Shown here piece after piece: positions 2,299 to 30,460 of a stretch of DNA of 64,000 nucleotides. Source of the stretch: an uncultured Bacilli bacterium (lineage in GTDB: Bacteria; Bacillota_I; Bacilli_A; RF39; UBA660); contig CANQHF010000003.1 of the NCBI GenBank assembly GCA_947623685.1, forward strand, positions 7,321 to 71,320, read 5' to 3'. The notes below the pieces were generated by a model. It was not told the origin of the DNA. It made no database searches and worked only from the letters and a program-made list of their open reading frames with translations. The position numbers and the translations under genes were made by a program. Positions within the stretch are counted from its first letter, which is position 1, and every line of letters starts with the position of its first letter.

Positions 2299-2399
2299 TA
2301 AATTTTAAATAATTTGTTAATAATAAAGATATATGATAAGTATATCTTTTTTTCTTTTTTAAATTTTTAAAATTAACAAAAATTACCATGAAAAAAATT

Positions 2400-2428
2400 G
2401 TATGAAATGGTAGAATTTTCACATTCTA
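2400..2428 (+). promoter_or_regulatory. candidate forespore (sigmaG/sigmaF-type) promoter of the SASP gene
   Basis: GTATG (2400-2404), 17-nt spacer, CATTCTA (2422-2428). This approximates the GnATA-N17-18-CATnnTA forespore consensus, about 25 nt upstream of the SASP start. Confidence 0.3.
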
Positions 2429-2452
2429 TTAGTGTACAGGAGGTGAAAACAC

Positions 2453-2656
2453 ATGAAAAATAGTAACAAAATAGTTGCTCCACAAGCTAAACAAGCTATA
2501 GAACAAATGAAATACGAAATCGCTAACGAATTTGGTGTTAATTTAGGTGCTGATGCTACTGCTAGAGCTAATGGTTCAGTTGGTGGTGAAATCACAAAAC
2601 GTTTAGTAAAAATGGGTGAATCACAATTAGGTGGATCTTACAACGTTCAAAAGTAA
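2453..2656 (+). CDS. alpha/beta-type small acid-soluble spore protein
   Basis: 67 aa with [10 protein letters not shown] and GGEITKRLV blocks, diagnostic of alpha/beta SASPs. Strong RBS AGGAGGTG. Confidence 0.9.
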
Positions 2657-2756
2657 TTAATATAAATATATATAAATAAAGGTAGCTATTTTTTGCTACC
2701 TTTTTGTTTTAATTATATTTATTTTGTTGTATAATTATTAGCAGGAGAGTGATTAT

Positions 2757-3935
2757 ATGAAAATATTATCTGTTAATGCTGGATCTTCATCGCTTAAGTT
2801 TCAAGCTTATGAAATGCCAGATGAAAAGGTTTTGATATCTGGTGTTATGGAAAGAATAGGAATGGAAAAAAGTTTTTACACGATTAAAATTAATGGTGAT
2901 AAAATAAAAAAAGAATTGGACATTGCTAATCATAAAGAAGCTTTTAAAATTTTGGTAGAAGAATTAAAAGTGAATAACATCATTACATCATTAGATGATA
3001 TAAAAGCAGTTGGACATCGTGTTGTTCAAGGTGGTGATTACTTTGATAAATCAGTTGTAATAACTGATGATGTATTATCGAAAATAGATGAGTTATCATC
3101 TTTAGCGCCACTTCATAATCCTGCTTCAATAACTGGTATTAAAGCAGCTAAAGAAGTTTTTAAAAATGCTGTTGAAGTAGCTGTTTTTGATACGGCGTTT
3201 CATCAGACAATGCCAAAGGAAAATTATTTATATGCACTACCAATGTCTTGGTATGATGACTTAAAGGTAAGAAGATATGGTATGCATGGAACATCACATA
3301 AGTTTGTATCTCAAAGAATGAATGAAATATTAGGAAGAACTGATACTAAATTAATAATTTGTCACATAGGAAATGGAGCTTCGATTAGTGCCGTGTTAAA
3401 TGGCAAATGCATTAATACAAGTATGGGACTTACCCCTAATGCTGGTCTTATTATGGGAACAAGATGTGGTGATATAGACGCAAGTATTATTCCTTACGTT
3501 ATGGAAAAAACTGGTATGAGTGCTAAAGAAATAGATAACGTGTTAAATAAAGAAAGTGGGCTTCTTGCAATAAGTAGAAAGTCAAGTGATTCCCGCGACA
3601 TTGAAGATGGTATTAAAAATGGTGATGAAAACTGTATATTGGCACAAAAAATGTACGTTAGAAGAATAGTTGATTACATTGCAAAATACTATGTTGAAAT
3701 GAATGGGTGTGATGCGATTTGTTTTACCGCTGGTATTGGAGAAAAATCAATTGATACAAGACGTGATGTTATAAAAGCTCTTGGTGTTCTTGGTATTTAT
3801 TTAGATGAAAAAGCAAATAACGTAAAATCAGAAGAACGTTTAATTTCAGCAAGTAATTCTAAAGTACCATGTTGGATTATTCCAACTGACGAAGAATTGA
3901 TGATTGCAAAAGACACTTTTGAGTTAGTTCAGTAA
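2757..3935 (+). CDS. ackA: acetate kinase
   Basis: N-terminal ILSVNAGSSSLKF, plus GHRVVQGG and HIGNGASI motifs; 392 aa. Confidence 0.95.
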   Translation: MKILSVNAGSSSLKFQAYEMPDEKVLISGVMERIGMEKSFYTIKINGDKIKKELDIANHKEAFKILVEELKVNNIITSLDDIKAVGHRVVQGGDYFDKSVVITDDVLSKIDELSSLAPLHNPASITGIKAAKEVFKNAVEVAVFDTAFHQTMPKENYLYALPMSWYDDLKVRRYGMHGTSHKFVSQRMNEILGRTDTKLIICHIGNGASISAVLNGKCINTSMGLTPNAGLIMGTRCGDIDASIIPYVMEKTGMSAKEIDNVLNKESGLLAISRKSSDSRDIEDGIKNGDENCILAQKMYVRRIVDYIAKYYVEMNGCDAICFTAGIGEKSIDTRRDVIKALGVLGIYLDEKANNVKSEERLISASNSKVPCWIIPTDEELMIAKDTFELVQ

Positions 3936-10002: not shown

Positions 10003-10897
10003 ATGAACTATTATAACGAGATAAAAGATGAACTTATAAATAATGAATTATATAAAAAAGTAAAGGATTATTCTAAAAATAAAAGTGATTTAACTACTTA
10101 TTATAACGTTGGTAGATTACTTAATGATGCTGGTAAACATTATGGTAAAAGTGTTATTAAAAATTATTCATATAGATTAAAACAAGAAGTGGGTAAAAAA
10201 TATAATGAAAGAACGTTAAGAAGAATGCGGGCAGTTTTATGAATTATTTAAAAATGAAAAATGGTCGGCAATGCCGACCGAATTGTCTTGGTCTCATTAT
10301 TCTGAACTGCTAAAACTAAAAGATTCAAATGAAATAAATTATTATATTGATTTAAGTATTAAACAAAATTTATCATATAGGGAATTAGGAAAATGTATTA
10401 AAAATAAAGAGTATGAAAGATTAGATGAAAAAACAAAACTTAAATTAATAAAACAAGAAAATAATAAAATAGAAGATTTTATTAAAGATCCGATACTTAT
10501 TAAAAATAAATATAACTATGATAGTGTATCAGAAAAACTATTACAACAACTAATATTAGAAGATATTCCATCATTTTTAAGTGAATTAGGAAGTGGATAT
10601 TCATTTATTAAAAATGAATATCCAATAAAAATAGGAAATACATATAATTACATAGACTTACTTTTATATAACATAGATTTTAATTGTTACGTGGTAATAG
10701 AGCTTAAAACTACCGAACTTAAAAAAGAACACATAGGACAAATAGAAGTATATATGAATTATATAGATAAAAACATAAAGAAAATATACCAAGAAAAAAC
10801 AATTGGTATAATAATATGTAAAAAAGATAATAAGTTTATAATTAGTTATGCATCTGATGAAAGAATTATATCTAGAAAGTATAAACTAGTTGTGTAA
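10003..10897 (+). pseudogene. YhcG/DUF1016 PDDEXK-nuclease family gene disrupted by a +1 frameshift
   Basis: ORF 10003-10242 ends ...ERTLRRMRAVL*. The next frame continues QFYELFKNEKWSAMPTELSWSHYSELL. Removing one G from the run at 10229-10231 restores RRMRQFYELF, which matches the family N-terminus. Confidence 0.7.
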
Positions 10898-10914: not shown

Positions 10915-10941
10915 AAAAGAAGAAAATTTTCTTCTTTTTTT
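10915..10941 (+). terminator. rho-independent terminator (copy 2, identical to 8538-8565)
   Basis: Same AAAAGAAGAAAATTTTCTTCTTTTTTT string as at 8538. Confidence 0.8.
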
Positions 10942-10999
10942 CATATTAAATCTTTTTTTACATAGTATTTAATGAGATTAAAAAGAAAGTAGGGATTAT

Positions 11000-11362
11000 A
11001 TGGAAAAATACGATATTATAAAAGATATTTCACAAAGAACAGGTGGGGATATATATTTAGGGGTAGTAGGAGCAGTTAGAACAGGTAAATCTACGTTTAT
11101 TAAAAAATGTATAGAAAATTTAGTTGTACCTAACATAAAAGATGAATATGAGAAAAAAAGATGTTTAGATGAAATTCCGCAAACGGCTCAGGGTAAAACA
11201 ATAATGACAATAGAACCAAAGTTTGTCCCTTCTAATGCTGCAACAATTCAAATAGAAGATTTTACGGCAAACATAAGATTAATTGATTGTGTGGGCTACG
11301 TAATTGATGCTGCTAAAGGATATGAAGATGAAAATGGACCTAGGATGGTTAGAACTCCGTGG
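11000..11362 (+). CDS. spoIVA: spoIVA 5' segment (codons 1-121, Walker A ATPase part)
   Basis: MEKYDIIKDISQRTGGDIYLGVVGAVRTGKSTFIKK...KGYEDENGPRMVRTPW is the canonical SpoIVA N-terminus. After W (11360-11362) the frame runs into 9 unrelated codons and a stop at 11392. Confidence 0.9.
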
Positions 11363-11373
11363 GAAGTTTACCC

Positions 11374-11385
11374 AAAAGTGATACC
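11374..11385. repeat. left terminal inverted repeat AAAAGTGATACC of the intervening element
   Basis: Perfect reverse complement of 14844-14855. Confidence 0.85.
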
Positions 11386-11766
11386 CCAATAAAAATTAAA
11401 TAAAACCTTATAAAATAAGGAAAAAACAATATTTCACTTGTTAGTCAAATTTTAAAAAAACTAGAAAGTGAGATTTTTTTTATGAAAAATGATGAAAATG
11501 TATTTAAAAGTGAGTTAATTTCTTTGCTGATAAAACACAAAAAAATTGGTACATATTCTTAATTTATAAGGTAACATAATTTTACTCTTAACTATTAAAA
11601 AAGAATTTCACTTAACATTCACAAATTAATTTTTTTATTACAAATAGCAAACATTAGTGATAAAACACTTAATTATAAAAAGAAGAAAAAATTTACACAC
11701 ACTATATATATTAAGAATAACAATATTATTTGTAACTAATAATATAAATTTAATTACTCAAATATA

Positions 11767-11795
11767 TTGTCAATTGCATCATTTTGTGATATAAT
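11767..11795 (+). promoter_or_regulatory. sigmaA-type promoter of the Fic gene
   Basis: TTGTCA (11767-11772), 17-nt spacer, extended -10 TGaTATAAT (11787-11795). Confidence 0.55.
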
Positions 11796-11823
11796 GGTGC
11801 AAATGAAAGGAGATTGATGTAAT

Positions 11824-12876
11824 TTGAGAGATTTTGATTTAAAGAAAGAGTATAGTAGCATTATATCTAATAGCAATATTATTAATTTAATAAGTAAAAT
11901 TCATGAATACAAAGGCAAACAATCTTATTTATTAAATTCGAAAAAGGACACACTAGAAACTTTATTAAAAGTTGCTAAAATTCAAAGTACTTCTTCATCA
12001 AATAAAATTGAGGGTATTTATACTACCGACAAAAGAATAAACGAAATAGTAAGTCAAAAATTGGAACCAAAAAATAGAAATGAAGAAGAAATAGCGGGTT
12101 ATAGAGATGTCTTATCCTTAATCCATGAAAATTACAATTATATAGATGTTAATCAAAACACAATTTTACAATTACACAGAGATTTATATAAATATACAGG
12201 ACATAGTTATGGTGGTAAATTCAAAAATTCACAAAACTATATTGAAGAAATTAATGAATTAGGAGAAAAAAAAGTTAGATTTACCCCACTATCTCCAGTA
12301 GAAACACCAATTGCCGTTGAAAACTTATGTAAAAATTATAATGAAATAGTTAATGATGAATCTTGTGATTTGTTAGTATTAATTCCAATATTCATATTAG
12401 ACTTTGTATCAATTCATCCCTTCAATGATGGCAATGGAAGAATTAGCAGATTACTAACTTTATTATTACTATATAAAGCTGATTATATGGTTGGTAAATA
12501 TATAAGTATTGAAAAAATAATAGAAGAAACAAAAGACAGTTATTATAGTGCTTTAGAAAAAAGTTCAATTTCTTGGCATAATAGCCAAAATGATTATTCA
12601 TATTTTGTCGAGTACTATTTAGGAATAATATTAAGTGCTTATAAAGAATTCGACTCAAGAATAAACCTTGCAAGCAAGAAAAGAATAACTTCATATAATA
12701 AAATTATAAGCATATTTAAAGAAAACTTTATTCCTATAGATAAAGCTTTTATAATTAATAAATGTCCTGATATAAGTGAAACAACAATTGAAAGAATTTT
12801 AAATAAATTACTAAAAGAAAATAAAATAAATAAAATTTCTGGCGGAAGATATACAAAATATAAATGGAATAGATAG
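11824..12876 (+). CDS. Fic family protein, class II (N-terminal inhibitory helix), C-terminal winged-helix-like tail
   Basis: Complete Fic motif HPFNDGNGRISR (12415-12450). N-terminal S-NKI-EG matches the [ST]xxxE[GN] inhibitory motif (11998-12015). TTG start behind AAAGGAG. Confidence 0.85.
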   Translation: MRDFDLKKEYSSIISNSNIINLISKIHEYKGKQSYLLNSKKDTLETLLKVAKIQSTSSSNKIEGIYTTDKRINEIVSQKLEPKNRNEEEIAGYRDVLSLIHENYNYIDVNQNTILQLHRDLYKYTGHSYGGKFKNSQNYIEEINELGEKKVRFTPLSPVETPIAVENLCKNYNEIVNDESCDLLVLIPIFILDFVSIHPFNDGNGRISRLLTLLLLYKADYMVGKYISIEKIIEETKDSYYSALEKSSISWHNSQNDYSYFVEYYLGIILSAYKEFDSRINLASKKRITSYNKIISIFKENFIPIDKAFIINKCPDISETTIERILNKLLKENKINKISGGRYTKYKWNR

Positions 12877-12950
12877 GCTTCTATACTCATCTGTCCTATA
12901 TCATACAAATTCTATTATATAATTATGTGGAAATCCACATAAATATAAAA

Positions 12951-12987
12951 AAGAATAATGTCTAATTAACGTAACATTGTTCTTTTT
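12951..12987 (+). terminator. terminator after the Fic gene
   Basis: AAGAATAATGT / ACATTGTTCTT stem (one wobble) followed by a T-run. Confidence 0.5.
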
Positions 12988-13031
12988 ACTTTTTTTAGTT
13001 CATAAAATTTATGGAACTGGAGGATAAAATT

Positions 13032-13175
13032 ATGTATGAAATAGAAGAATTTTTTTCAGTAGATGGAAATGACTTAAAAGATTTATTAAAAAGTTGTATT
13101 TATAATTATTACCTAAAAAATAAAGCTAAAGTTTTATCTTCGAATAGTTTGCAAAAGGAAAAAATTATTGCATAA
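13032..13175 (+). CDS. 47-codon ORF upstream of the recombinase gene (candidate recombination directionality factor)
   Basis: MYEIEEFFSVDGNDLKDLLKSCIYNYYLKNKAKVLSSNSLQKEKIIA. GGAGG at 13018-13022 lies 9 nt before the ATG. Below the ORF-track size cutoff. Confidence 0.3.
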   Translation: MYEIEEFFSVDGNDLKDLLKSCIYNYYLKNKAKVLSSNSLQKEKIIA

Positions 13176-13218
13176 TAGATACACAAATATGAAGTATTGT
13201 CTAAGAAAGGAGTAAAAA

Positions 13219-14805
13219 ATGTACAAAAAGGGCAATAATGACAATATTAATTACAAAATTGGCTTATATATAAGATTATCTCGTGAAGATGGTGATGATT
13301 TAGAAAGTGAATCAGTAACTAATCAAAGAAGTCTATTAATGGGTTTTTTGAAAGCAAATGGATTACAAATAGTAGATGAGTATGTAGATGATGGTTATTC
13401 TGGTGGTAATTTTAATAGACCTAGTTTTCAAAGATTAATCAAAGATATAGAAGATGGTCGTATCAATATGGTGCTTACTAAGGATTTATCAAGATTAGGT
13501 AGGGATCATATTCAAACTGGTTTTTATGTTGAAAATTATTTTCCAGAAAAAGGAATTAGATATATTGCAGTAAACGATGATATAGATACTTTTTATGAAA
13601 CAAGTGGTAGTGATATGATGCCATTTAAACTTAGTATGAATGATATGTATGCAAAAGATATTTCTAAAAAAGTTCGATCTCATTTACTTCAAATGAAACA
13701 AGATGGTAAATTTTGTGGTAGTGTTCCTGCTTATGGTTATATAAGACATCCAGAAAATAAACATCAATTAATACCAGATCCTAGAACTGCACCAGTAGTA
13801 AAAAGAATTTTTGATTTATATATTAGTGGTTATGGTAGTTGTGCTATTGCTGATATATTAACTAGAGAGGAAATACCAACTCCTATTATGTTAAAGAATA
13901 AGAAAAAATCTTTAAAAAAATGTAATCATCCAGAAATTTGGAAACATTGCTCTGTTGGAAATATACTTAAAAATCCAATTTATACTGGTGTCCTTATACA
14001 ACATACTTCCCAAAATATAAATTATAAAGTTAAAAAAAGGAGGAAAGTTGCTAAAAGTGAATGGTGTATAACCGAAAATGCACATGAGCCATTAATTACT
14101 AAAGAAACTTTTGAGTTAGCACAACAAATTAAGGACAAATCAAATAATTATAGTGAAGATAGAAGAAATGTGGAATACATTTTATCAGATTTTGTATATT
14201 GTAAAGACTGTGGTGCAAGAATGAGTATTAGTTATGATAAAAAAAGAGATCGTGTAACCATGAATTGTAACAATTATAGAAAATTTAGTAAATATGATAT
14301 ATGTTTCTCTCATTATATGAATTATACTAAATTGGAAAAAACAGTTTTTAATAAAATTAGTGGATTATCAATGCAATATATGGAAGATAAGGAAGAATTT
14401 GAAAAAATAATTAAAGAAGATTATGTAGATCCAAGAAATGAACTTAATAAGAAAATAAATACTTTAACTAAAAGTATTGAAAATCTAAAATTAAAACAAG
14501 ATTCATTATATGATGATAAATTTAATGGTGTTATTAGTGCTGACACTTACCAAAGATTATATAGCCAAACTGATGAGGAAATAAATATAGCCAATAAAAA
14601 AATAAAAAAATATAGAAATGAAATAAACTCTATAAGTGATGATTCAGTAGTTTTTGCAGATTACTTAACAGTAGTAGAAAACTTTTTAGAAATGAAAAAT
14701 CCAACGAAAGAAATGCTTAATAAATTAATCGACAAAATCTATGTAACAAAAGATAAAAAATTAGAAATTCATTATAGAATTGCCAAAAGTGAAGTATTAG
14801 TTTAG
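13219..14805 (+). CDS. large serine recombinase (SpoIVCA/SprA-like)
   Basis: N-terminal resolvase domain with catalytic-serine context IGLYIRLSREDGD. Recombinase domain follows, then a zinc ribbon (CKDCGARM...CNNYRK) and a C-terminal coiled coil; 528 aa. Confidence 0.9.
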   Translation: MYKKGNNDNINYKIGLYIRLSREDGDDLESESVTNQRSLLMGFLKANGLQIVDEYVDDGYSGGNFNRPSFQRLIKDIEDGRINMVLTKDLSRLGRDHIQTGFYVENYFPEKGIRYIAVNDDIDTFYETSGSDMMPFKLSMNDMYAKDISKKVRSHLLQMKQDGKFCGSVPAYGYIRHPENKHQLIPDPRTAPVVKRIFDLYISGYGSCAIADILTREEIPTPIMLKNKKKSLKKCNHPEIWKHCSVGNILKNPIYTGVLIQHTSQNINYKVKKRRKVAKSEWCITENAHEPLITKETFELAQQIKDKSNNYSEDRRNVEYILSDFVYCKDCGARMSISYDKKRDRVTMNCNNYRKFSKYDICFSHYMNYTKLEKTVFNKISGLSMQYMEDKEEFEKIIKEDYVDPRNELNKKINTLTKSIENLKLKQDSLYDDKFNGVISADTYQRLYSQTDEEINIANKKIKKYRNEINSISDDSVVFADYLTVVENFLEMKNPTKEMLNKLIDKIYVTKDKKLEIHYRIAKSEVLV

Positions 14806-14843
14806 CCACCTTAAATGGTGTGCATATATTTTTTAGCCACTCA

Positions 14844-14855
14844 GGTATCACTTTT
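14844..14855. repeat. right terminal inverted repeat GGTATCACTTTT of the intervening element
   Basis: Perfect reverse complement of 11374-11385. Confidence 0.85.
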
Positions 14856-14869
14856 TAGGTTCACGGTGG

Positions 14870-15982
14870 TATGATGAAGAAATTCCTTTTGTTGAAGCAG
14901 CGGAAATTGGAACTGAAAAAGTAATAAGGGATCATTCAACAATAGGTATTGTTGTTACCACTGATGGTAGTTTTGGAGAAATAAAAAGGGAAGACTACGT
15001 TAACGCTGAAAATCAAGTTATAAGTGAGTTAAAAGAAATTGGAAAACCATTTATCGTTGTCTTAAATTCATCTCATCCAACACATCCAGATACCGAAAGA
15101 ATTGCACAGTCGATTAAAGATGAATACAATGTACCTGTTATTCCTGTTAGCGTAGAAGCTATGAGTGAAAAAGAAATATATAACATATTAAAAGAAGCAT
15201 TATTTGAATTTCCTGTTTTAAGTGTTAATGTAAATATTCCGGATTGGATTGCATGTTTATCTTATAAGCATCCACTTAAAAAACAATATGTTGAAAAGAT
15301 AAAAGAAAGCGTAGTAGATGTGGATAAGGTTCGTGATGTAAATACGATAATAGATCATTTTAATGGTTGTGATTACATTAGTAAGGCTTATTTATCAGAA
15401 GTTGATACCGCAAATGGAGAAATAACAATTAATTTAGAAGCACCAGATGGTTTATATAATGAGGTATTAAACGAAATAATTGGAGCCGAAATAAACTCCA
15501 AGGCAAAACTTATTAGTTTATTTACTGAATTGAACGAAACAAGAGAAGAATTCTCTCAATTTAAAGAAGCAATTAAAATGGTTAAACAAACCGGGTATGG
15601 AACGTCTTTCCCAACGATTAAAGATATGAAGCTAGATACCCCAGAAATAATAAAACAAGGTTCTCGCTATGGAGTTAAATTAAAAGCAGTTGCCCCTTCT
15701 ATACACATGATAAGAGTAGATGTTGAATCAACTTTCGAACCGATAATAGGCTCTGAAACTCAAAGTAAAGAGTTAATTGATAACTTGATGAAAGATTATG
15801 AATCTGATCCTCAAAGCGTATGGAAAAGTGAAATGTTTGGAAGGAGTTTAGATAACATTGTTCAAGAAGGTATAAGGGGTAAATTATCACTTATGCCAGA
15901 TAATATAAGACATAAATTACAAACAACATTAACAAAAGTTGTTAATAAAGGTTCTAATAATATGATAGCTATAGTTATATAG
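14870..15982 (+). CDS. spoIVA: spoIVA 3' segment (codons 122-491)
   Basis: The frame is open from 14870: YDEEIPFVEAAEIGTEKVIRDHSTIGIVVTTDG...GSRYGVKLKAVAPSIHMIRVDVES...NMIAIVI. There is no start codon or RBS of its own. Track ORF 15161-15982 is only the part after an internal Met. Confidence 0.9.
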   Translation, partial: YDEEIPFVEAAEIGTEKVIRDHSTIGIVVTTDGSFGEIKREDYVNAENQVISELKEIGKPFIVVLNSSHPTHPDTERIAQSIKDEYNVPVIPVSVEAMSEKEIYNILKEALFEFPVLSVNVNIPDWIACLSYKHPLKKQYVEKIKESVVDVDKVRDVNTIIDHFNGCDYISKAYLSEVDTANGEITINLEAPDGLYNEVLNEIIGAEINSKAKLISLFTELNETREEFSQFKEAIKMVKQTGYGTSFPTIKDMKLDTPEIIKQGSRYGVKLKAVAPSIHMIRVDVESTFEPIIGSETQSKELIDNLMKDYESDPQSVWKSEMFGRSLDNIVQEGIRGKLSLMPDNIRHKLQTTLTKVVNKGSNNMIAIVI

Positions 15983-16695: not shown

Positions 16696-17784
16696 TTGAG
16701 AAAAAAAAGAATATTAATTTCTTCTTATAATTTAGAAATAGGTGGAATAGAAAAATCCCTTATAAATTTACTTAAAAGCTTTAATTTAAATAAATATGAC
16801 GTTACACTTATTTTAGAAGAAAAAAAGGGAATATTTTTAAGTGACGTTCCTAAAAACGTTAAAGTTAAAGAATACAAGGCAAGTAAAATAAAAAACGTTT
16901 TCATAAGAAAAACAATTAATTTAGCTAAACGTTTAATATTTATACTTTTTAATTATAAAAGATATAACGCATCCATATGTTATGCAACATATTCAGGGCC
17001 ATGTGGTTTTGTTGCTAGGGTATCATCTAATAATAAAATATTATTCGTCCATAGTAATTATTATCAGCTTTATAATAAAGATGAAAATAAAGTAAAATTA
17101 TTTTTTGATAATTTAAAAATTAATAAATATAATCATATTGTGTTTGTAAGTAATGAATCTAAAAAAGATTTATGCAAAATATATCCAAATATAGAAAATA
17201 AATCAGTTACTATTAATAACATAGTGGATAATGAAAAAATACTTAAATTATCAGAAAAAAAAGTTAATATAAAAAGAACTACTAAAAAGGTTTTCCTATT
17301 TGTTGGAAGACTAGATGAATCATCTAAAAGGCTTACTTTATTATTTGATGTTGCCAAAAAATGTAAAATTGAAAAAATAAAAGCTTTGTTTTGGATAATA
17401 GGAAATGGTCCAGATGAGAAGTTATATAAAGACTTTGTTAAAAAAGAAAATTTAGATAATGTTTTATTCTTTGGAGCACAAAAAAATCCATATCCATATA
17501 TGAGAGCGTGCAACTATTTAATATTGACATCAAAATATGAAGGATTTCCTTTAGTTTATAATGAAGCTATAATACTTAATAAGCCAATTATAACAACCAT
17601 TGATGTATCAGATGATTATATATCTATTCCAAATCGTTTTGGATTTATCGTAAATGAAAATAATATATTTGATAAAGTAAAAGAATTATCCTTAAAAAAA
17701 GAAAAAATAAAAGAAACCATAGATTATAAAAGTTTAAATGAGAAAAGAATGAAGTTAATAGAGCAAATAATGGAGCGTAAATGA
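16696..17784 (+). CDS. glycosyltransferase, GT4 (GT-B) family
   Basis: N-terminal ISSYNLEIGGIEKSL and C-terminal SKYEGFPLVYNEA (E-x7-E-like) motifs. Confidence 0.8.
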   Translation: MRKKRILISSYNLEIGGIEKSLINLLKSFNLNKYDVTLILEEKKGIFLSDVPKNVKVKEYKASKIKNVFIRKTINLAKRLIFILFNYKRYNASICYATYSGPCGFVARVSSNNKILFVHSNYYQLYNKDENKVKLFFDNLKINKYNHIVFVSNESKKDLCKIYPNIENKSVTINNIVDNEKILKLSEKKVNIKRTTKKVFLFVGRLDESSKRLTLLFDVAKKCKIEKIKALFWIIGNGPDEKLYKDFVKKENLDNVLFFGAQKNPYPYMRACNYLILTSKYEGFPLVYNEAIILNKPIITTIDVSDDYISIPNRFGFIVNENNIFDKVKELSLKKEKIKETIDYKSLNEKRMKLIEQIMERK

Positions 17785-18725
17785 TGATTAAATATAGTTT
17801 TATAGTGCCAGTATATAATACTAGTAAATATTTAGATAAATGTCTTAAGTCATTAGTTAATCAAACTTTTAATGACTTCGAAATAATTATCGTTAATGAT
17901 GGTTCTACTGATAATAGTAAAAGTATTATATCTAATTACCAAGAAAAATATAATAATATAAAAGTAATAAACCAAAAAAACGAAGGACTTTCATCCGCAA
18001 GAAATAATGGTGTTAAAAAATCAATTGGTAATTATCTACTTTTTATTGATAGTGATGATTATGTAGAAGAAGATTTGTTAAAAAAAATAGATGAAAAAAT
18101 AGATGATTCTGAAGTATTAAGATATCAAGTTATAACTGAAGATGAAGATGGTAATAACATAAAGATATTTAACGAAAAACCTTTTGATGTCTTAAATGGA
18201 TTTGATGCTTTTAAAGAATTATCTAGTTATCATTTCGTAGAACCATCTTGCTTATATGTATATAAAAAAGATTATTATTTAGATAATAATTTTAAGTTTA
18301 AAATAGGTGTTTATCATGAAGATTATGGACTTATACCATACGTTATTTATAAAGCAAGAAAAGTAAAAAGTATAAGTTACGTAGGATATCATTATGTGCA
18401 AAGAAAAGGAAGCATAATGAATAGTGATAATTATGATAAAGAAGTAAAAAAAGCTTTTGATATGTTAAATCAATATAAGACTTTAAGATTATTTTCAAAA
18501 AACATAAATAAAAAAAATAATTTAGATGATTATTATTTGAGTTACATAACAAATAGTGTAATTGTTAAAGCAAGAAATCTTAAAGGAAAAGAAAAACAAA
18601 AATACATAAATGAGTTAAAAAAAATAAATGCTTTTGATGGAGTATTAGTTAACACTAACATAAGAAAATTAAAAAAGAAATTAATGAAATTAAATTTAAA
18701 CTTATATTTAAAGGTGATTAAATGA
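17781..18725 (+). CDS. glycosyltransferase family 2
   Basis: SFIVPVYNTSKYLDKCLKSLVNQT, DGSTD and DSDD motifs. Overlaps the upstream stop by 4 nt. Confidence 0.85.
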   Translation: MMIKYSFIVPVYNTSKYLDKCLKSLVNQTFNDFEIIIVNDGSTDNSKSIISNYQEKYNNIKVINQKNEGLSSARNNGVKKSIGNYLLFIDSDDYVEEDLLKKIDEKIDDSEVLRYQVITEDEDGNNIKIFNEKPFDVLNGFDAFKELSSYHFVEPSCLYVYKKDYYLDNNFKFKIGVYHEDYGLIPYVIYKARKVKSISYVGYHYVQRKGSIMNSDNYDKEVKKAFDMLNQYKTLRLFSKNINKKNNLDDYYLSYITNSVIVKARNLKGKEKQKYINELKKINAFDGVLVNTNIRKLKKKLMKLNLNLYLKVIK

Positions 18726-19681
18726 AAAAAGTATCAGTAATAGTGCCAGTATATAATACGGAAAAATATTTAAGAAAATGTTTAAATAGTTTGGTTAATC
18801 AAACTTTAGAAGATATTGAAATAATCGTTATCGAAGATAAATCACCTGATAATTCAAATGAAATATTAGATGAATACGAACGAAAATACAAAGATAAAAT
18901 AAAAGTATTTCATAACAAAACTAATAAAGGAATAGGCTATAACAGAAATTTTGGTGTTAAAAAGGCAACTGGAGAGTATATAGCTTTTGTTGATAGTGAT
19001 GATTGGATAGATGAAACAGCATATGAGAAAATGTATAATAAGGCAGTAAAGGAAAATTTAGATTTAGTTTGTTGTGATATAAGAAAAATAAATGATTCAA
19101 AAAAAATAATTGGTTATGAAACCATTAACTATTTTAAATCTTCTAACGTTGAATATAATCCTATGCTACTTTTAGATATTAATCTAGGACCAACTAATAA
19201 ATTGTTTTCAAAAAAAATATTTGATAAAGATACTTTTTTTTCAGAAAATTTAAAATATGAAGACTTATTTGTATTACCAAAACTAATTTGCAAGTCTGAA
19301 AAAATTGGAAAAGTAGATAAAATATATTATAACTATGTAATACATAATAATAGTGAAACAACAACAATGAATGATAAAGTATTTGATGTTTTAAAAGTCT
19401 TAGAAAAGGTAAACAATGATTTTGAAACTTTAAATTACTATAGTAAAATACATCCATATATAGAATGTTTAAATATAAGAACTATATTTAGATATACTTT
19501 GCAGCAAAGATATCAGAAAGATAAAAAAGTTGCAAATGATTTTATAGATAAAGCATTTGATTATTTAAATACGGAATTTCCAAACTGGAAGAAAAATAAA
19601 ATATGGGAAAAAAGAAGTCCAATAAAAAGATTTATAGAAAAAAATAAATTATTAACTAAAATATATTGTTATTTATTTTAA
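18722..19681 (+). CDS. glycosyltransferase family 2
   Basis: SVIVPVYNTEKYLRKCLNSLVNQT, EDKSPD and DSDD motifs. ATGA overlap with the upstream gene. Confidence 0.85.
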   Translation: MKKVSVIVPVYNTEKYLRKCLNSLVNQTLEDIEIIVIEDKSPDNSNEILDEYERKYKDKIKVFHNKTNKGIGYNRNFGVKKATGEYIAFVDSDDWIDETAYEKMYNKAVKENLDLVCCDIRKINDSKKIIGYETINYFKSSNVEYNPMLLLDINLGPTNKLFSKKIFDKDTFFSENLKYEDLFVLPKLICKSEKIGKVDKIYYNYVIHNNSETTTMNDKVFDVLKVLEKVNNDFETLNYYSKIHPYIECLNIRTIFRYTLQQRYQKDKKVANDFIDKAFDYLNTEFPNWKKNKIWEKRSPIKRFIEKNKLLTKIYCYLF

Positions 19682-19693
19682 AAAAATGCTATA

Positions 19694-19732
19694 ACTCCAA
19701 AAAAATCATATTTTTATTGATTTTTTTGGAGT
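19694..19732. repeat. 15-bp perfect inverted repeat (hairpin) between GT genes and ABC exporter genes
   Basis: ACTCCAAAAAAATCA - 9 nt - TGATTTTTTTGGAGT. A second T-run hairpin follows at about 19753-19795. Confidence 0.7.
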
Positions 19733-19844
19733 TGGAGGTATAGTGTAATTATAAAAAGGACATTTACCTTTAAAAATAAATGTTCTTTTTTTATTTTATT
19801 TTATATGTTATAATTATTTATGTGAAAATTATAGAGGTGTATTA

Positions 19845-20657
19845 ATGACAAAAGTAAAGGCAATTTTAGGAAATTTTAAAAGATATTGGTTTTTAATGAC
19901 GCAATTGATAGGAAGAGATTTTAAAGTTAAGTATAAAAGAAGTGTTTTAGGTATTTTATGGAGCTTATTAAATCCTATTCTTATGATGACTGTTATGGCA
20001 GTCGTATTTTCACAAATGTTTAAGTTTAAAGTTGATGGAATAAACTACTTAGTATATTTAATGACTGGTATTATAATGTTTAACTATTTTTCTCAAGCGT
20101 CTAATATGGCTATGACTTCTGTTGTTGAAAATTTCACTTTAATAAATAAAGTATATATACCAAAGTATATTTTTCCGGTTGCTAAATGTTTATTTATTGG
20201 TATAGATTTTTTATTAACTTTAATACCATGGCTTGCAATAATAGGCTTATCTTATTTTGGACTAGGTGAATATACATGTCATTTTAATGTTTATTTTTTA
20301 ATGTTACCATATGTATTTTTATGTATGTTTTTATTTACTGTCGGAATGGGACTACTTCTTTCATGTCTTTCGGTTTTTTTAAGAGACATATGGCATATAT
20401 ATGGGATAGTTTTAACACTATGGAATTACTTAACGCCGGTATTTTATAGTATAGAAATATTACCAACTAAATTACAATTTTTAATGCATTTTAATCCACT
20501 ATATCAATTTTTAAATGCCGCCAGAACCATAGTTTTATATGGTAAATGTCCATCATTAAAAACATTAGGTATCTTAGGATTTATAGGTGTTGGAATGCTT
20601 ATTATAGGTTCTTTAGTGTTTAGAAAAAAACAAGATAAATTTATTTATTATGTTTAG
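19845..20657 (+). CDS. ABC-2 type polysaccharide/teichoic acid export permease (TagG/Wzm-like)
   Basis: Six hydrophobic helices. N-terminal LIGRDFKVKYKRSVLGILWSLLNP is typical of ABC-2 exporters. Confidence 0.85.
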   Translation: MTKVKAILGNFKRYWFLMTQLIGRDFKVKYKRSVLGILWSLLNPILMMTVMAVVFSQMFKFKVDGINYLVYLMTGIIMFNYFSQASNMAMTSVVENFTLINKVYIPKYIFPVAKCLFIGIDFLLTLIPWLAIIGLSYFGLGEYTCHFNVYFLMLPYVFLCMFLFTVGMGLLLSCLSVFLRDIWHIYGIVLTLWNYLTPVFYSIEILPTKLQFLMHFNPLYQFLNAARTIVLYGKCPSLKTLGILGFIGVGMLIIGSLVFRKKQDKFIYYV

Positions 20658-20668
20658 GAGGTAAAATT

Positions 20669-21403
20669 ATGATTAAAATAGATAACGTTTCTATGATGTT
20701 TAATCTTGGAATAGAAAAAGATTTTTCACTTAAGCAGGCGTTCATAAATATTTTTACTAAAAAAAGCAAGAGAAAAAAAGATGAATTTTGGGCATTAAAA
20801 GATGTTAATATTCACGTAGGGAAAGGAGAAGTTGTAGGATTAATTGGAAGTAATGGCGCAGGTAAATCAACCCTTTTAAAAGTAGTAAGTGGTGTTATGA
20901 AACCTACTAAAGGAAAAGTTACTGTAAATGGTGTTATATCTCCTATGATAGAGCTTGGTGCAGGTTTTGATCCTAATTTAACCGCTAGAGAAAATATTTA
21001 TTTAAATGGTGCAATATTAGGTTATTCAAAAAAATTCTTAAATGAAAAGTTTGATGAAATTGTTGAGTTTTCTGAATTAAGAGAATTTTTGGACGTACCA
21101 ATTAAAAACTTTTCTTCTGGTATGACAGCTAAATTAGCTTTTTCAATAGCAACAATTGTTAATCCAGAAATATTAATAGTTGATGAAATTTTATCGGTTG
21201 GAGATATTAAATTTCAAGAAAAAAGTAAGGCAAAAATGATGGAAATGATAAAAGGTGGGACAACTGTTTTATATGTTTCTCACTCTTTACAATCAATTAA
21301 AGATTTGTGCACTAAAGTAGTTTGGATAGAACATGGTAAAGTAATAAAAATAGGGAATACTGAAGAAGTGTGTGATGAATATTACAAGGAACAAATGAAG
21401 TAG
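20669..21403 (+). CDS. ABC exporter ATP-binding protein (TagH/Wzt-like)
   Basis: Walker A GSNGAGKST, signature FSSGM, Walker B ILIVDE. Confidence 0.9.
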   Translation: MIKIDNVSMMFNLGIEKDFSLKQAFINIFTKKSKRKKDEFWALKDVNIHVGKGEVVGLIGSNGAGKSTLLKVVSGVMKPTKGKVTVNGVISPMIELGAGFDPNLTARENIYLNGAILGYSKKFLNEKFDEIVEFSELREFLDVPIKNFSSGMTAKLAFSIATIVNPEILIVDEILSVGDIKFQEKSKAKMMEMIKGGTTVLYVSHSLQSIKDLCTKVVWIEHGKVIKIGNTEEVCDEYYKEQMK

Positions 21404-21411
21404 GAGGATAT

Positions 21412-23205
21412 ATGAAAAAATATATTCATTATTGCTGGTTTGGAGGTAAACCACTTCCTAAATTAACAAAAAAATGTATTAAAAGCTGGAAAAAATATCT
21501 TCCGGATTATGAAATAATCGAATGGAATGAAAATAATGTTGACCTAAATGAATGCCCATTTATAAAAGAAGCTTATGAAAATAAAAAGTGGGCCTTTGTG
21601 GCGGATTATGCAAGAACTAAGGCTATTTATGAAATGGGCGGAATTTATTTTGACACGGATATGTTAATAACAAAAAATATTAATTTTCTTTTAAATAATG
21701 AAACTTTTTTAGGTGTAGAAGACTCTATGATGGTTAACGCTGCTGTTTGGGGAGCATCTAAACCTAAAACTAATTTTTCTAAGAGAATGCTTGATTTTTA
21801 TAAATCACAAGAACACTTTAACGTAGATAATATATATAAAATGAGCATTCCAAGAATAATAACAAAAATATTAGATGAGTATGGTTTTGATCCATCTATA
21901 AACAATGTTCAAGTATTAAATAAAAACATATATGTATATCCAAGAGAATATTTTTATCCGCTATCTTATAATTTTAAGGATAATAAATTTACTGAAAAAA
22001 CATGTATGATTCACTATTTTGATGCAACTTGGATTCCAAAAAACGAACAAATAGAAATGAAACTCATAAGAAAATTTGGTGCTAAACCAGTTGCTTTTTC
22101 CTTAAAAATTTATAGATTTTTAAAGAGAAATATCAAACGTGCATTAAAATTATGTTTATTTCCTGTTTATTTATATATAAGGTATAAAAGAAAAATAAAT
22201 GATGAGTACTTAAAAGATTTAAATAATACGATTGAAGATATCAAAAAAGTAAATAAAGATTATTTAGTGATGCACAATCCAAAATGGCTAGGCGTTACAA
22301 GTGCAACTATTGAACTTTTTTCATCAAGGGTTAGATGTGGTGAACTTTTAAGAAAAAAAGACATTAAAAAAGTAAAAGAAGCAATTTTAAACTCTAATGT
22401 AAAACAAGTTATATTTAGTGCAATGGCTTTGGGTTGGAGTAAGCTTGCTATAGATTTAAAAAAACAAAATCCTGATATTAAAGTAAAAGTTTTTTGGCAC
22501 GGAAGTAATTCACAAGTATCAGAACCATATGGTTGGGCTCGTAACATAGAAATTATAAACTTACATAAAGATGGTATAATTGATGTTTTTGCAATCTGTA
22601 AGGAAAGTATTTTAAATTTTTATAAAAATGAAGGATATAATACGATGCTTGTTAGAAACACCGTGAGATTATCAAAAAAAATAACTGGTAAACCGCCAAA
22701 AGATGAAGTAAAAATAGGAATATATGCTGCTAAAAGTGATGATTGGAGAAAAAATTTATTCGCTCAACTTGCAGCGGCATCATTAATTCCTAACGCAATT
22801 GTTGATATGGTTCCACTAAATCCTGAAGCAAAAATTTTTGCACAGGAAATAGGTTTAAAACTCGTAGGATTAGACAAACCTATTAAAAGAAATGATTTAT
22901 TAAAACGAATGGCTAATAACACCATTAATTTATACGTTACATTTTCAGAATGTGCCCCAATGCTTCCATTAGAAAGCTTTGAAGTAGGTGTTCCATGTGT
23001 TTTTGGTAACAATCATCACTATTTTAAAAATCAAGAACTAGAAAATTATGTCATTGTAAAAAATGAAGAAGATCCTATAGAAATATCAAATCAGATAAAA
23101 AAATGTTTAGATAACAAAAACGAGGTAATGAAATTATATAAAACTTGGAAAAAAGAAAACGATGCTTTATCAAAACAAAGCGTTAATGATTTTCTTAATA
23201 TGTAA
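21412..23205 (+). CDS. two-domain glycosyltransferase: N-terminal DXD sugar-binding (Gly_transf_sug-like) domain plus C-terminal divergent GT-B-like domain
   Basis: N-terminus has KKIHYCWFGG...YFDTDM (DXD). The C-terminal half (from about 22250) is paralogous to the next gene. Confidence 0.6.
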   Translation: MKKYIHYCWFGGKPLPKLTKKCIKSWKKYLPDYEIIEWNENNVDLNECPFIKEAYENKKWAFVADYARTKAIYEMGGIYFDTDMLITKNINFLLNNETFLGVEDSMMVNAAVWGASKPKTNFSKRMLDFYKSQEHFNVDNIYKMSIPRIITKILDEYGFDPSINNVQVLNKNIYVYPREYFYPLSYNFKDNKFTEKTCMIHYFDATWIPKNEQIEMKLIRKFGAKPVAFSLKIYRFLKRNIKRALKLCLFPVYLYIRYKRKINDEYLKDLNNTIEDIKKVNKDYLVMHNPKWLGVTSATIELFSSRVRCGELLRKKDIKKVKEAILNSNVKQVIFSAMALGWSKLAIDLKKQNPDIKVKVFWHGSNSQVSEPYGWARNIEIINLHKDGIIDVFAICKESILNFYKNEGYNTMLVRNTVRLSKKITGKPPKDEVKIGIYAAKSDDWRKNLFAQLAAASLIPNAIVDMVPLNPEAKIFAQEIGLKLVGLDKPIKRNDLLKRMANNTINLYVTFSECAPMLPLESFEVGVPCVFGNNHHYFKNQELENYVIVKNEEDPIEISNQIKKCLDNKNEVMKLYKTWKKENDALSKQSVNDFLNM

Positions 23206-23215
23206 GAGGTGAATC

Positions 23216-24151
23216 ATGAATATTTTAGATATAAACAAAGTTAAAAATAAAGAATATATAGTTTTATTGCCAAAATATGATTATGATATAAAAGATAGTG
23301 TAGAATATTCCTTTGAAAATGTATTTTATCTTGATTATGAGCTTACTAAAGAACATGCTGATATATTAATTGATTTTATTAATAATAAAGCTAAAATGCT
23401 TATATTATTTGATTATGATGAATTTTATAGACAAATTTTACCATATATTAGAAGAACAAAAAAAGTAAAATGGATATACAAAAATTCAATTGCTCAAATG
23501 ACAACAGGAATGGTTAGAGCAACAATAACCAATTTAATGGAATTTTATGATAGAAATATAGTAGACGAAATAGGATGTTTAGATAAATCAACGTATGCTG
23601 TATTTAAAAATTCTGGTTATAGGGTAAAACATATATTATTAGATGCTAATCCTAAAATAAAAAAAGCAAAAAAATCAAATTCAATTGGAGTAATAGGAAA
23701 TGATTATGATCCTAATCATAATACGTATAATCAATTAAGTGCTTTAAAATTAGTTGATTATAATTACGTTAAAATGGTAAAAAGTATGCCTGCAACAGAG
23801 CATTTTATTAACTTCTTTAATATAAAAGAAAAAAAAGTAAATACTTTAAAAGAAGCTATGGAAGATAACTTCGTTAATTTGTATTGTAACTTTACTGGAA
23901 ATAATACTGAATTAATATTAAAAAGTTTAGATATGAATATTCCTTGCATTTTAGGCAACACTAATTTGTTTGATAAATTTCCAAAATTAAAAAAATACTT
24001 AGTATTAGAGAGTGATGATGATATAAACGAGATTGCATATAAAATAAATAATATCAAAGAAAATAAAGAAAATATTGTAAAAGAATATGCTAAGTTTAGA
24101 CAAAAATATTCTTTAGAATCTAAAAGTATAATTGAAAAATTTCTAAAATAA
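23216..24151 (+). CDS. hypothetical protein paralogous to the C-terminal domain of the preceding gene (divergent GT-B-like)
   Basis: Shared blocks: KVKW / IGV-IGI..D / NLYCNFT-NLYVTFS / LKSLDMNIPCILGN-LESFEVGVPCVFGN. Confidence 0.4.
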   Translation: MNILDINKVKNKEYIVLLPKYDYDIKDSVEYSFENVFYLDYELTKEHADILIDFINNKAKMLILFDYDEFYRQILPYIRRTKKVKWIYKNSIAQMTTGMVRATITNLMEFYDRNIVDEIGCLDKSTYAVFKNSGYRVKHILLDANPKIKKAKKSNSIGVIGNDYDPNHNTYNQLSALKLVDYNYVKMVKSMPATEHFINFFNIKEKKVNTLKEAMEDNFVNLYCNFTGNNTELILKSLDMNIPCILGNTNLFDKFPKLKKYLVLESDDDINEIAYKINNIKENKENIVKEYAKFRQKYSLESKSIIEKFLK

Positions 24152-24220
24152 AGGTAATAAGCCTTTATTTTTTATATGATAAAATGTTATAATTTAAATG
24201 TATAAATTTCGGAGGAAAAT

Positions 24221-25399
24221 ATGAAATATGGAGTTTTATGTGCAAAAAATGCAAGTAACATAGGAGACGATATTCAATCTTATGCTTCATCAAGATTTTT
24301 GCCATCTATTGACTATTATATTGAAAGAGAAGAAATAAGTAATTTTAAAAGTAAAAATAATGAGCCAGTTGCTGTTATTATGAATGCGTGGTGGATGTGG
24401 AAAAAATGGAATTGGCCTCCTTCAAAATGTATAATACCTAAATTAATAAGTATGCACTTTACAAGTTGGACTACCGAAAATTGGGGAAGTACTATAAAAC
24501 ATGAAATATTAGATGGTATAGGTAAAGAATATTTAAATAGTTATGGACCAGTTGGATGTAGAGACATGGATACTCTTGCTTTATTAAAAAAACATAATAT
24601 AGATGCATATTTTTCGGGTTGTTTAACTTTAACTTTACCGAAGCAAAAAAAGAAAAAGTTAAAAAAAGAATATGTTTGTGCTGTTGATGTAGATAATTGT
24701 GTAATTGATAAAATAAAATCAACTGTTAATAACAAAGTGGATGTTAAAATAATTGAGCATGATAGGATTACTGATAAAGAAAGAAATGACTGGAATAAAA
24801 GGATGAAAAACGTAGAAGATTTACTAACAACATATCAAAATGCTAAATGTGTTATAACTAGTAGACTTCATGCCGCATTACCATGTTTAGCAATGGAAGT
24901 TCCAGTTTTGTTGGTTCGCGATGGAAATGATTGGGATCGATTTAGACCATATATAGATTTATTACATTTTATGTCGCCTCAAGATTTTTGCAATGGTAAG
25001 TATGATGTTTTAAATCCATTGGAAAACAAAAAAGAATATCTAAGTATTAGATATTCCTTAATTGATTCAATTAAGGAATATCTAAGTATTAGATATTCCT
25101 TAATTGATTCAATTAAGGAATTCATTAAACAAACATCTACTATGAAAAATCAATTGAAAGATATTATAAAAACAAAATATACTGATGAAGATGTTAAAAA
25201 CTGGCAATATGATTTGATGAAAAATGCGCTTGACAAATGGTTTTATAAAAGTAGAGATATGTTAAAAGAATATAATAAAACAATAGATTATTTAAGAAAA
25301 GTAGAAAAAGAAAATAATGATATTAAAAATAGCTCTTCTTGGAAAATTACTAGACCAATTAGAACTTTAAAAGAAAAATTTCAGAAAGTAAAAAAATAA
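24221..25399 (+). CDS. polysaccharide pyruvyl transferase family protein with C-terminal coiled coil
   Basis: NIGDDIQSYA near the N-terminus and SRLHAALPCLAMEVPV near the C-terminus are typical of the PS_pyruv_trans family. Contains an in-frame 14-aa duplication. Confidence 0.6.
   Translation: MKYGVLCAKNASNIGDDIQSYASSRFLPSIDYYIEREEISNFKSKNNEPVAVIMNAWWMWKKWNWPPSKCIIPKLISMHFTSWTTENWGSTIKHEILDGIGKEYLNSYGPVGCRDMDTLALLKKHNIDAYFSGCLTLTLPKQKKKKLKKEYVCAVDVDNCVIDKIKSTVNNKVDVKIIEHDRITDKERNDWNKRMKNVEDLLTTYQNAKCVITSRLHAALPCLAMEVPVLLVRDGNDWDRFRPYIDLLHFMSPQDFCNGKYDVLNPLENKKEYLSIRYSLIDSIKEYLSIRYSLIDSIKEFIKQTSTMKNQLKDIIKTKYTDEDVKNWQYDLMKNALDKWFYKSRDMLKEYNKTIDYLRKVEKENNDIKNSSSWKITRPIRTLKEKFQKVKK
25034..25117 (+). 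repeat. perfect 42-bp tandem duplication inside the pyruvyl transferase gene
   Basis: GAATATCTAAGTATTAGATATTCCTTAATTGATTCAATTAAG occurs twice back to back (25034-25075 and 25076-25117). This gives EYLSIRYSLIDSIK x2. Confidence 0.95.
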
Positions 25400-25418
25400 A
25401 TATTTGAAGGGTGATGTT

Positions 25419-26738: not shown

Positions 26739-26747
26739 GTGTATACT

Positions 26748-28859: not shown

Positions 28860-28863
28860 GAGG

Positions 28864-30396: not shown

Positions 30397-30408
30397 TTAT
30401 ATTTTATT

Positions 30409-30436: not shown

Positions 30437-30460
30437 TTGTATAATTTTATTGGTGATAGT

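Follow-up and report, generated by a model that had tools for sequence, protein, structure and literature searches.

We analysed a 64-kb stretch of DNA (the window; contig CANQHF010000003.1) from an uncultured Bacilli bacterium, in which the sporulation gene spoIVA is interrupted between the codons for Trp121 and Tyr122 by an insert of 3507 bp (11363-14869). Our analysis confirmed that spoIVA in the window is split by an intervening element, which carries a gene for a large serine recombinase (LSR). The gene spoIVA is expressed in the mother cell under sigma-E in B. subtilis and C. difficile (PMC5025042, PMC517825). The gene interrupted here, spoIVA by its match to the NCBIfam equivalog TIGR02836, is therefore a mother-cell sporulation gene, as in the skin-like class of elements. 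The main features are the following, with the basis of each reading in brackets (ORF, open reading frame).

10941-10968, plus strand: host spoIVA promoter of sigma-E type (TCATATT, 13-nt spacer, CATAGTAT), ending 31 nt before the ATG
11000-11362, plus strand: spoIVA 5' part, codons 1-121, Walker A GAVRTGKST ... RTPW (ORF reading, domain matches)
11363-14869, plus strand: intervening element, 3507 bp, 24.4% GC, all genes on the spoIVA strand (computed)
13219-14805, plus strand: LSR gene, 528 aa, catalytic Ser in YIRLSRED (domain matches)
14870-15982, plus strand: spoIVA 3' part, codons 122-491 and stop, YDEEIPFVEA... to NMIAIVI (ORF reading)

The 5' fragment is read as an ORF (11000-11392) that encodes the SpoIVA N-terminus up to ...GPRMVRTPW, runs on through nine foreign codons (EVYPKVIPQ) and stops at 11392. 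The 3' part is preceded by a stop in its frame that ends at 14836 and has no in-frame start codon before the ATG at 15161. It could therefore not be translated from the junction, and spoIVA function needs excision of the insert. Joining 11362 to 14870 in silico gives 1476 nt in frame, i.e. 491 codons plus the stop. Against a cutoff of 460 bits, the joined protein scores 688 with TIGR02836 spore_IV_A, the alignment covering model positions 1-492, and it contains the three SpoIVA domains of Pfam in their proper sequence. Over 100% of its length it shares 94% identity with the intact 491-aa SpoIVA proteins of close relatives, and it is 91% identical to the intact SpoIVA of another relative, Candidatus Aphodocola excrementigallinarum (uncultured Bacilli). 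The loci of the closest intact proteins (94%) are syntenic (DHH, MYG1, EngB, Der, SpoVIF, spoIVA, glycosyltransferases) and read ...CCTTGG|TATGATGAAGAA... across the uninterrupted junction. An earlier note on this DNA, made from the letters alone, had described the N-terminal ORF with its EVYPKVIPQ tail, a 3' part resuming at 14870 with no start codon, an in-frame splice giving 491 codons, and a 3507-bp insert ending in a 528-aa LSR gene. All four readings held, and so did the two comparisons that it had proposed, since the joined protein aligns end to end with SpoIVA and the close relatives carry no insert between codons 121 and 122.

A chimeric metagenome assembly that joined a copy of the element to fragments of spoIVA would produce a similar picture. 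The window does come from a metagenome-assembled genome, and near-identical element copies in co-occurring species could mislead assemblers. However, the same 3507-bp insert with both flanks was found in independent assemblies from other samples (L001, L002), the insert being 100% identical, so the split gene is no assembly artefact. Moreover, 40 species genomes, obtained in many projects, have both junctions at the identical codon, and the two halves join exactly in frame. We regard a chimera as extremely unlikely.

Allele counts were taken among the members listed of the 90% protein cluster that contains the N-fragment of the window. There, 126-aa N-fragments occur on more than 130 contigs and intact 491-aa SpoIVA on about 59; one such N-fragment appears in 52 blocks of the collection, beside a Mob_Pre element. 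Split spoIVA is thus common in these populations.

The recombinase has the parts that define an LSR, i.e. a resolvase domain with the catalytic serine, a Recombinase domain, a zinc ribbon and a coiled-coil C-terminal region. Its domains are Resolvase, Recombinase, Zn_ribbon_recom and DUF4368, with PF00239, PF07508 and PF13408 above their cutoffs, and it matches the integrase family phrog_95 (9e-102). Among solved structures, the TnpX catalytic domain of Tn4451 comes closest (2mhc, E = 6.7e-32); its nucleophile motif ALYERLSRDD aligns with YIRLSRED. The protein also aligns over its full length with the structure of SprA, the SPbeta integrase (9dxh, E = 3e-17). No curated NCBIfam equivalog was reached (121 bits against 900 for CcrB, 97 against 375 for XisF). 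The dN/dS values, 0.12-0.16 for the window LSR against relatives and 0.05-0.16 overall, indicate that the LSR is under purifying selection. In a clade of LSRs about 40% identical to that of the window, we observed in ten species an open frame with no start codon that overlaps the LSR stop. This LysM-repeat frame (KCYIKIVSGDTL...; L055, L057, L062, L063, L065, L066, L069, L075, L079 and L086, e.g. L066 1718-2539) could be a further split gene, cut close to its 5' end.

The ends of the element and its remaining features are as follows.

11360-11385, plus strand: attL, the common core TGG (11360-11362) and the element-side arm GAAGTTTACCCAAAAGTGATACC (comparison of ends)
11374-11385, within attL: left outer 12-nt inverted repeat AAAAGTGATACC
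11767-11795, plus strand: sigma-70-type promoter of the Fic gene, TTGTCA, 17-nt spacer, TG-TATAAT (11/12 matches)
11824-12876, plus strand: Fic/DOC family cargo gene, 350 aa, motif HPFNDGNGR (Pfam PF02661, E = 1.2e-16)
12909-12956, no strand: inverted repeat with 23-nt arms between the Fic gene and the recombination module (sequence)
12980-13008, plus strand: recombination-module promoter of CATA type, TTCTTTT, 14-nt spacer, CATAAAAT (conserved motif)
13032-13175, plus strand: 47-aa ORF MYEIEEFFSVDGNDLKDLLKSCIYNYY..., with the ribosome-binding site GGAGG at 13019-13023 (conservation)
14844-14869, plus strand: attR, the element-side arm GGTATCACTTTTTAGGTTCACGG and the common core TGG (14867-14869) (comparison of ends)
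14844-14855, within attR: right outer inverted repeat GGTATCACTTTT

The TGG common to both ends is the Trp121 codon, and since the crossover could fall anywhere in the TGG of either end, the boundaries are fixed only to within 3 nt. The outer 12 nt of the two ends are perfect inverted repeats, and the right arm reads GGTATCACTTTTTAGGTTCACGGTGG. When the ends are brought together, the rebuilt attP is an imperfect palindrome of 48-49 bp centred on the TG/GG of TGG, which would be the form expected for the site of a serine integrase. The predicted attB junction after excision is ACTCCGTGGTATGATGAA (flanking string GGTTAGAACTCCGTGGTATGATGAAGAAATTCC) and the predicted circular attP junction is TTCACGGTGGGAAGTTTACC (flanking string TTTTTAGGTTCACGGTGGGAAGTTTACCCAAAAG). 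The insert thus combines a short common core and inverted repeats with in-frame restoration of the host gene. The skin-like architecture that the earlier note had proposed is therefore borne out, with a mother-cell gene, an LSR at the edge by the 3' fragment and a precise in-frame excision in silico.

We found that the element belongs to a family. A single scan of species-representative genomes recovered 40 loci in 40 species genomes, with LSRs 56-93% identical to that of the window. Their hosts are mostly labelled uncultured Bacilli, Tenericutes or Mollicutes and come from rabbit, ruminant, human, chicken and mouse gut. In all 34 loci with sequence past the LSR gene the spoIVA 3' part comes next and starts exactly at Tyr/Phe122 after TGG, and the 5' part ending in ...TPW was captured as well in 10 loci. 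The LSR stop, 64 nt before the right junction in the window, holds the same edge position in 34 of 34 informative relatives. GGTATCAC stands 26 nt before the right junction across the family, and GTGATACC follows the left junction by 14-15 nt in each of the 10 loci with a captured left end. The spoIVA 3' part is an intact frame of 366-370 codons in 31 of the 33 loci that cover it whole, and in the remaining two it is cut by a second element.

In these two species spoIVA lies in three pieces (L015 8284-15340, CALVXD010000070.1; L017 from ~12585). Besides the element at Trp121 there is a second insert of ~7 kb at ...APSIH|MI..., with a CATAT core. Its own LSR of 546 aa is unrelated to the first (~26% identical) and is encoded directly upstream of the downstream spoIVA fragment; the insert also carries a small resolvase and a helix-turn-helix (HTH) repressor, and its left-end sequences differ between L015 and L017. 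Because this second insert with an unrelated LSR occurs in two species, independent recombinase lineages seem to have targeted spoIVA more than once.

Five of the family elements measure 3.1-4.2 kb and six ~10-11 kb, while several others exceed 11.6 kb. Common to the members are only the promoter, the small ORF, the LSR gene and the right arm (positions ~1580-3507 of the element) together with a short stretch at the left end. The larger relatives encode mobility functions: a Mob_Pre relaxase in L016, L017 and L134, a MobL relaxase with a type IV coupling protein in L011, and a type IV coupling protein in L028. One type of cargo comprises MobL, type IV coupling protein, M23 peptidase and ArdC, another comprises Mob_Pre with cI-like HTH repressors, and an ImmA-like peptidase domain is also found in such relatives. 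RHS proteins, a giant M26-protease-like protein, Fic and an AAA_14/DUF4143 ATPase make up the other cargo. Some 10-kb members (L010 1504-9726, L024, L009, L041) carry a single giant ORF of 2300-2750 aa; the M26 IgA1-protease-like region and GLUG motifs of the L010 protein suggest that the element delivers a surface protein for host interaction.

Among the family elements examined, we saw no phage structural genes. A prophage origin was considered and rejected: in IMG/VR the best LSR was 44% identical over a partial alignment and 41% near full length, no family attP was present, and the PHROGs match is to a generic integrase family only. Because of the relaxases and coupling protein and the lack of phage structural genes, the family resembles integrative and conjugative elements (ICEs) or integrative and mobilizable elements (IMEs), accompanied by non-autonomous miniatures. 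The larger relatives combine a relaxase with an integration module. The window element has no relaxase and no prophage-like gene content, the latter being typical of the skin-like class but not universal in it; our domain searches found in it just the Fic gene, the small ORF and the LSR gene, with no relaxase, repressor or regulator module. The description that fits the window copy best is that of a non-autonomous miniature of an ICE/IME-like family, in its smallest class.

The elements appear to have moved recently. LSR genes that are 99.7-99.9% identical in DNA adjoin spoIVA 3' parts that are only 70-94% identical, and the identities of LSR and SpoIVA are uncorrelated (r = 0.07, 465 locus pairs). 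The sharp fall in identity from the element to the adjacent spoIVA implies recent interspecies transfer with site-specific integration, and the comparison indicates that the family is currently mobile. As a mosaic, the window element combines parts of two subgroups. The att arms and the recombination module group with one and are closest to L007 (92% in DNA), while the 160 nt inside the left end and the Fic gene match the other (L016 82%, L026 77%; 11363-11535, compared with L016, L026 and L034); a small hairpin CCTTATAAAATAAGG (11406-11420) is conserved in that left-end stretch. The Fic protein is 86% identical to the Fic of an equally small element in L026. Capture from the chromosomal Fic gene downstream of spoIVA (L003) was considered and rejected, the identity being just 22%. 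The inverted repeat at 12909-12956 could be a terminator or an operator. A dyad at 12952-12983, AGAATAATGT(CTAAT)..ACATTGTTCT, follows it and overlaps the -35 region of the module promoter. It is conserved in the subgroup of the window at equivalent positions (L007-L012, L024, L043) and looks like the operator of a dimeric regulator; no candidate protein for binding it was identified.

The 47-aa ORF, absent from the earlier note, was found directly upstream of the LSR gene in 39 loci. It has the core MYE.xEF..xG.DLK(E/D)(V/L)LKSCIY.YY, in which variation is greatest at the third codon position and the median dN/dS is 0.29; it thus behaves as a protein-coding gene under protein-level selection. 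It has no match in Pfam, NCBIfam or PHROGs. We consider its product a candidate recombination directionality factor (RDF).

We compared the promoters in 25 non-redundant family regions upstream of the small ORF, with 518 upstream regions as the background. The strict motif CATA[ACG]AAT occurs 27-33 nt before the ATG of the small ORF in 17 of the 25, and one-base variants stand at the same place in five more; in the background it occurs in two regions, in neither of them at the family distance. The C-A preceding TA is kept in all 22 family regions with the motif. This bipartite element is common to two subgroups whose upstream DNA is otherwise unalignable. No TTGACA-like -35 at 16-18 nt spacing and no TGn were found in the module promoter, the -35 region of which is T-rich, and a sigma-A reading is less likely. 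The module promoter has the same form as the spoIVA promoters of the host clade. The host promoter is conserved in the intact-spoIVA relatives L003-L006, that of L007 has the same form (TTCTTTTT...CATAAGTAT), and it matches the sigma-E consensus of B. subtilis (-35 ATA-type, -10 CATACA-T); CATACAAT equals the -10 part of that consensus.

Mother-cell control of the recombinase or of its RDF is known from other systems. Expression of spoIVCA depends on sigma-E and SpoIIID (PMC517825), the RDF of the C. difficile skin element is under cell-type-specific control (PMC5025042), and SprA requires the small RDF SprB, whose expression is controlled in sporulation (PMC4191935, PMC5499854). Because the CATA promoter is conserved and host-like and the known recombinases and RDFs are mother-cell controlled, we propose that the 47-aa protein and the LSR are driven by sigma-E.

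Taken together, we hold it to be fairly probable that the window carries a member of an element family that integrates at the Trp121 codon of TPW|Y and is excised in the mother cell in the course of sporulation, which would rebuild spoIVA. The element would be a minimal, cargo-only member whose TnpX-like LSR integrates at the invariant TGG. In the integrated state (vegetative cells, forespore, germ line) spoIVA would be split and yield no functional protein. Once sigma-E becomes active in the mother cell, the 5' part of spoIVA would be transcribed, and so would the 47-aa ORF and the LSR gene from the CATA-type promoter. The LSR, probably with the 47-aa protein as directionality factor, would then carry out recombination between attL and attR, at either the TG or the GG within TGG. 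A 3507-bp circle bearing the 49-bp palindromic attP would be released, and the chromosome would be left with ...ACTCCGTGGTATGATGAA... and an intact spoIVA of 491 codons. This gene could then be expressed from its own sigma-E promoter for the basement layer of the coat, and the forespore chromosome would retain the element. The timing, the mother-cell specificity, the role of the RDF and the exchanged dinucleotide are what we infer. Developmental excision is favoured by indirect evidence, i.e. the CATA promoter, the purifying selection on the LSR and the commonness of split alleles.

Several points weigh against this proposal. An exact look-up did not find the joined 491-aa SpoIVA in a collection of 15 billion proteins. 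A degenerate attP pattern, GGTATCAC-N15-16-TGG-N13-16-GTGATACC, gave 30 matches in the metagenome collection and two in the viral collection, which we attribute to chance because none lies near an LSR gene or spoIVA and most are GC-rich. The intact halves of spoIVA are no proof of long-term function because the elements spread recently and horizontally. The promoter assignment is based on a motif and the B. subtilis consensus, and TAnAAT could weakly serve sigma-A. TnpX excises and integrates with no RDF, catalysing both directions, and because this closest characterized recombinase needs none, the 47-aa ORF may have another role. Excision in the family would not be exclusively developmental because the ICE-like relatives must excise in vegetative donors. 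The host is uncultured, and its sporulation is presumed.

A recurrent 49-nt near-perfect palindrome, GGTATCACGAAGGAATGACACCCTTGGTGGTGTCCCCCTTCGTGATACC, was noticed in low-GC (~30%) metagenome contigs (L104, L108, L109, L119, L123, L124, L127, L128). It has the same outer GGTATCAC/GTGATACC motif, with no LSR gene within the stretch examined.

The lack of an excised allele, whether as joined protein or as attP pattern, in the collections searched would also be expected from plain insertional inactivation, in which the conserved TPW codon is just a reliable attB, the carriers are asporogenous or losing sporulation, and low-level excision serves transfer. Sporulation loss is common in gut Firmicutes, the window element has neither relaxase nor regulator, and in a horizontally spreading ICE/IME lineage with recent insertions intact halves need no selection after insertion. 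For the same reason we dropped selection on the spoIVA halves (dN/dS 0.03-0.11) as an argument for long-term function; with recent arrivals, the LSR being 99.9% identical across hosts, it is uninformative. Inactivation does not, however, account for the resemblance of the module promoter to the host spoIVA promoter, nor for split alleles that outnumber intact ones among the close relatives listed and turn up again in dozens of samples. All 31 uninterrupted 3' halves are free of frameshifts and stops. The neighbouring sporulation genes YunB and SpoVIF are intact in the window, which fits a host that still sporulates. The characterized LSR elements in mother-cell genes all excise during sporulation (PMC4191935, PMC5595907, PMC5025042). 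We regard inactivation as unlikely, though it is the alternative to be taken most seriously.

A further alternative, above all for the ICE-like relatives, is stochastic or growth-phase switching. In this case the element would excise and reintegrate in some cells, only cells that are free of it, even transiently, would sporulate, and spoIVA would be an on/off switch of the population. TnpX-type LSRs act in both directions with no cofactor, and the cI-like HTH repressors and ImmA-like peptidase domain of the ICE-like relatives suggest vegetative induction circuits. Excised circles of the yin element in yabG were present at all time points (PMC10747680). But the minimal element of the window has no repressor module, and the sole recognizable promoter of its recombination genes is of the CATA type. 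A circle of 3.5 kb that does not replicate would moreover be lost after excision in the germ line, but the element is found stably in several samples. Such switching seems to us rather improbable, more so than inactivation, and excision in the mother cell remains our preferred reading.

The reported hosts of intervening elements are sigK, spsM, spoVFB, spoVR, gerE and yabG (PMC4191935, PMC5595907, PMC10747680, PMC5025042, 10.1101/2022.02.25.481979). Our search of the openly accessible literature turned up no intervening element in spoIVA; the earlier note, which did not recall spoIVA as a described host gene, agrees with this. The family thus appears to be previously undescribed, its new aspects being the target gene, a TnpX-like recombinase lineage, the ICE/IME nature with present mobility, and the host clade. 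The same note took 3.5 kb to be unusually minimal, which is not borne out, since skin elements of 2.6-48 kb that encode 2-67 proteins are reported (10.1101/2022.02.25.481979).

The closest parallel is the skin element of sigK (SpoIVCA or CD1231; B. subtilis, C. difficile and 13 further Firmicutes), likewise an LSR insert in a mother-cell gene. In both, the LSR gene lies at the edge directly upstream of the 3' fragment and no other genes are common to the members, the sizes overlap, and the frame is restored by excision (10.1101/2022.02.25.481979; PMC517825). In contrast to skin, whose host gene encodes a late sigma factor, the host gene here encodes an early structural ATPase under sigma-E, and the LSR is TnpX-like, with no curated equivalog and with relatives that carry conjugation or mobilization genes instead of phage genes. 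Excision has been demonstrated for skin and is inferred for the spoIVA element. Another non-prophage insert in a sporulation gene that a serine recombinase excises is gin, in gerE of B. cereus ATCC 10987 (PMC5595907), but it is 28.6 kb long, was reported in a B. cereus strain and is placed in a late gene of the sigma-K period, whereas the spoIVA family covers at least 40 species and includes ICE-like as well as 3-kb minimal forms. SPbeta (spsM), vfbin (spoVFB), vrin (spoVR) and yin (yabG) split mother-cell genes as well; unlike the spoIVA family, in which no phage genes were seen, they are prophages or prophage remnants.

The transposons Tn4451 and Tn4453 (TnpX LSR and TnpZ Mob/Pre relaxase) share with the family a small LSR-driven form, TnpX as the nearest solved homologue, a DUF4368 C-terminal domain, and the Mob_Pre relaxase of the ~10-kb relatives. 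Tn4451 carries catP and uses many GA-containing insertion sites. The spoIVA family, on the other hand, is strictly confined to one codon with a TG/GG core, and the window element, with a single TGG site in spoIVA and no relaxase, is not a mobilizable transposon of the Tn4451 type. The fdxN element of Anabaena and its recombinase XisF offer a parallel in developmental excision by a serine recombinase in a terminally differentiating cell, with a weak NCBIfam match (97 bits); this score is far under the cutoff of 375, and the phylum, target gene and cofactors (XisH, XisI) differ.

Some features of the surroundings are recorded here. Just upstream of spoIVA (10003-10897) a gene for a YhcG/DUF1016 PDDEXK nuclease appears to be split into ORFs of 79 and 208 aa and is probably a frameshifted pseudogene; these ORFs are absent from the intact-spoIVA relatives L003-L006. 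The HU gene hbs (41805-42104) lies ~26 kb from spoIVA, and in L015 it directly follows spoIVA. A large cluster of glycosyltransferase, ABC-transporter and polysaccharide genes occupies the first ~19 kb of this interval (16700-35900). A class B RNase P RNA, as expected for Bacillota, was found at 48208-48556 (285 bits), and no tRNA genes were found in the 64-kb window.

SpoIVA is the sole coat-morphogenetic protein conserved in all endospore formers (10.1101/2022.02.25.481979), and with spoIVA as a rebuilt gene, programmed excision would no longer be confined to late regulators and enzymes but would reach the first structural step in assembling the coat. The intervening elements form a living lineage of ICE-like, IME-like and mini-elements that moves between species, in place of prophage relics, and could be a natural system for studying how mobile elements gain developmental control. 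In annotation, a split spoIVA in gut Bacilli, often labelled Mollicutes or Tenericutes, would be scored as a pseudogene and its hosts wrongly taken as non-sporulating. The LSR, with its 49-bp attP and well-defined attB, could be a new orthogonal integrase. We further speculate, as an idea that we ourselves think quite unlikely to hold in full, that the recombination module of a conjugative or mobilizable family has been wired to sigma-E, the doomed mother cell being a compartment in which excision is free of cost and which possibly acts in donation or release. If true, this would account for the finding of near-identical elements in species with SpoIVA proteins of only 60-70% identity, and spoIVA, split twice in some genomes, would be a landing pad preferred by independent recombinase lineages. 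Sporulation in uncultured gut Bacilli would at the same time be a scheduled event of gene transfer.

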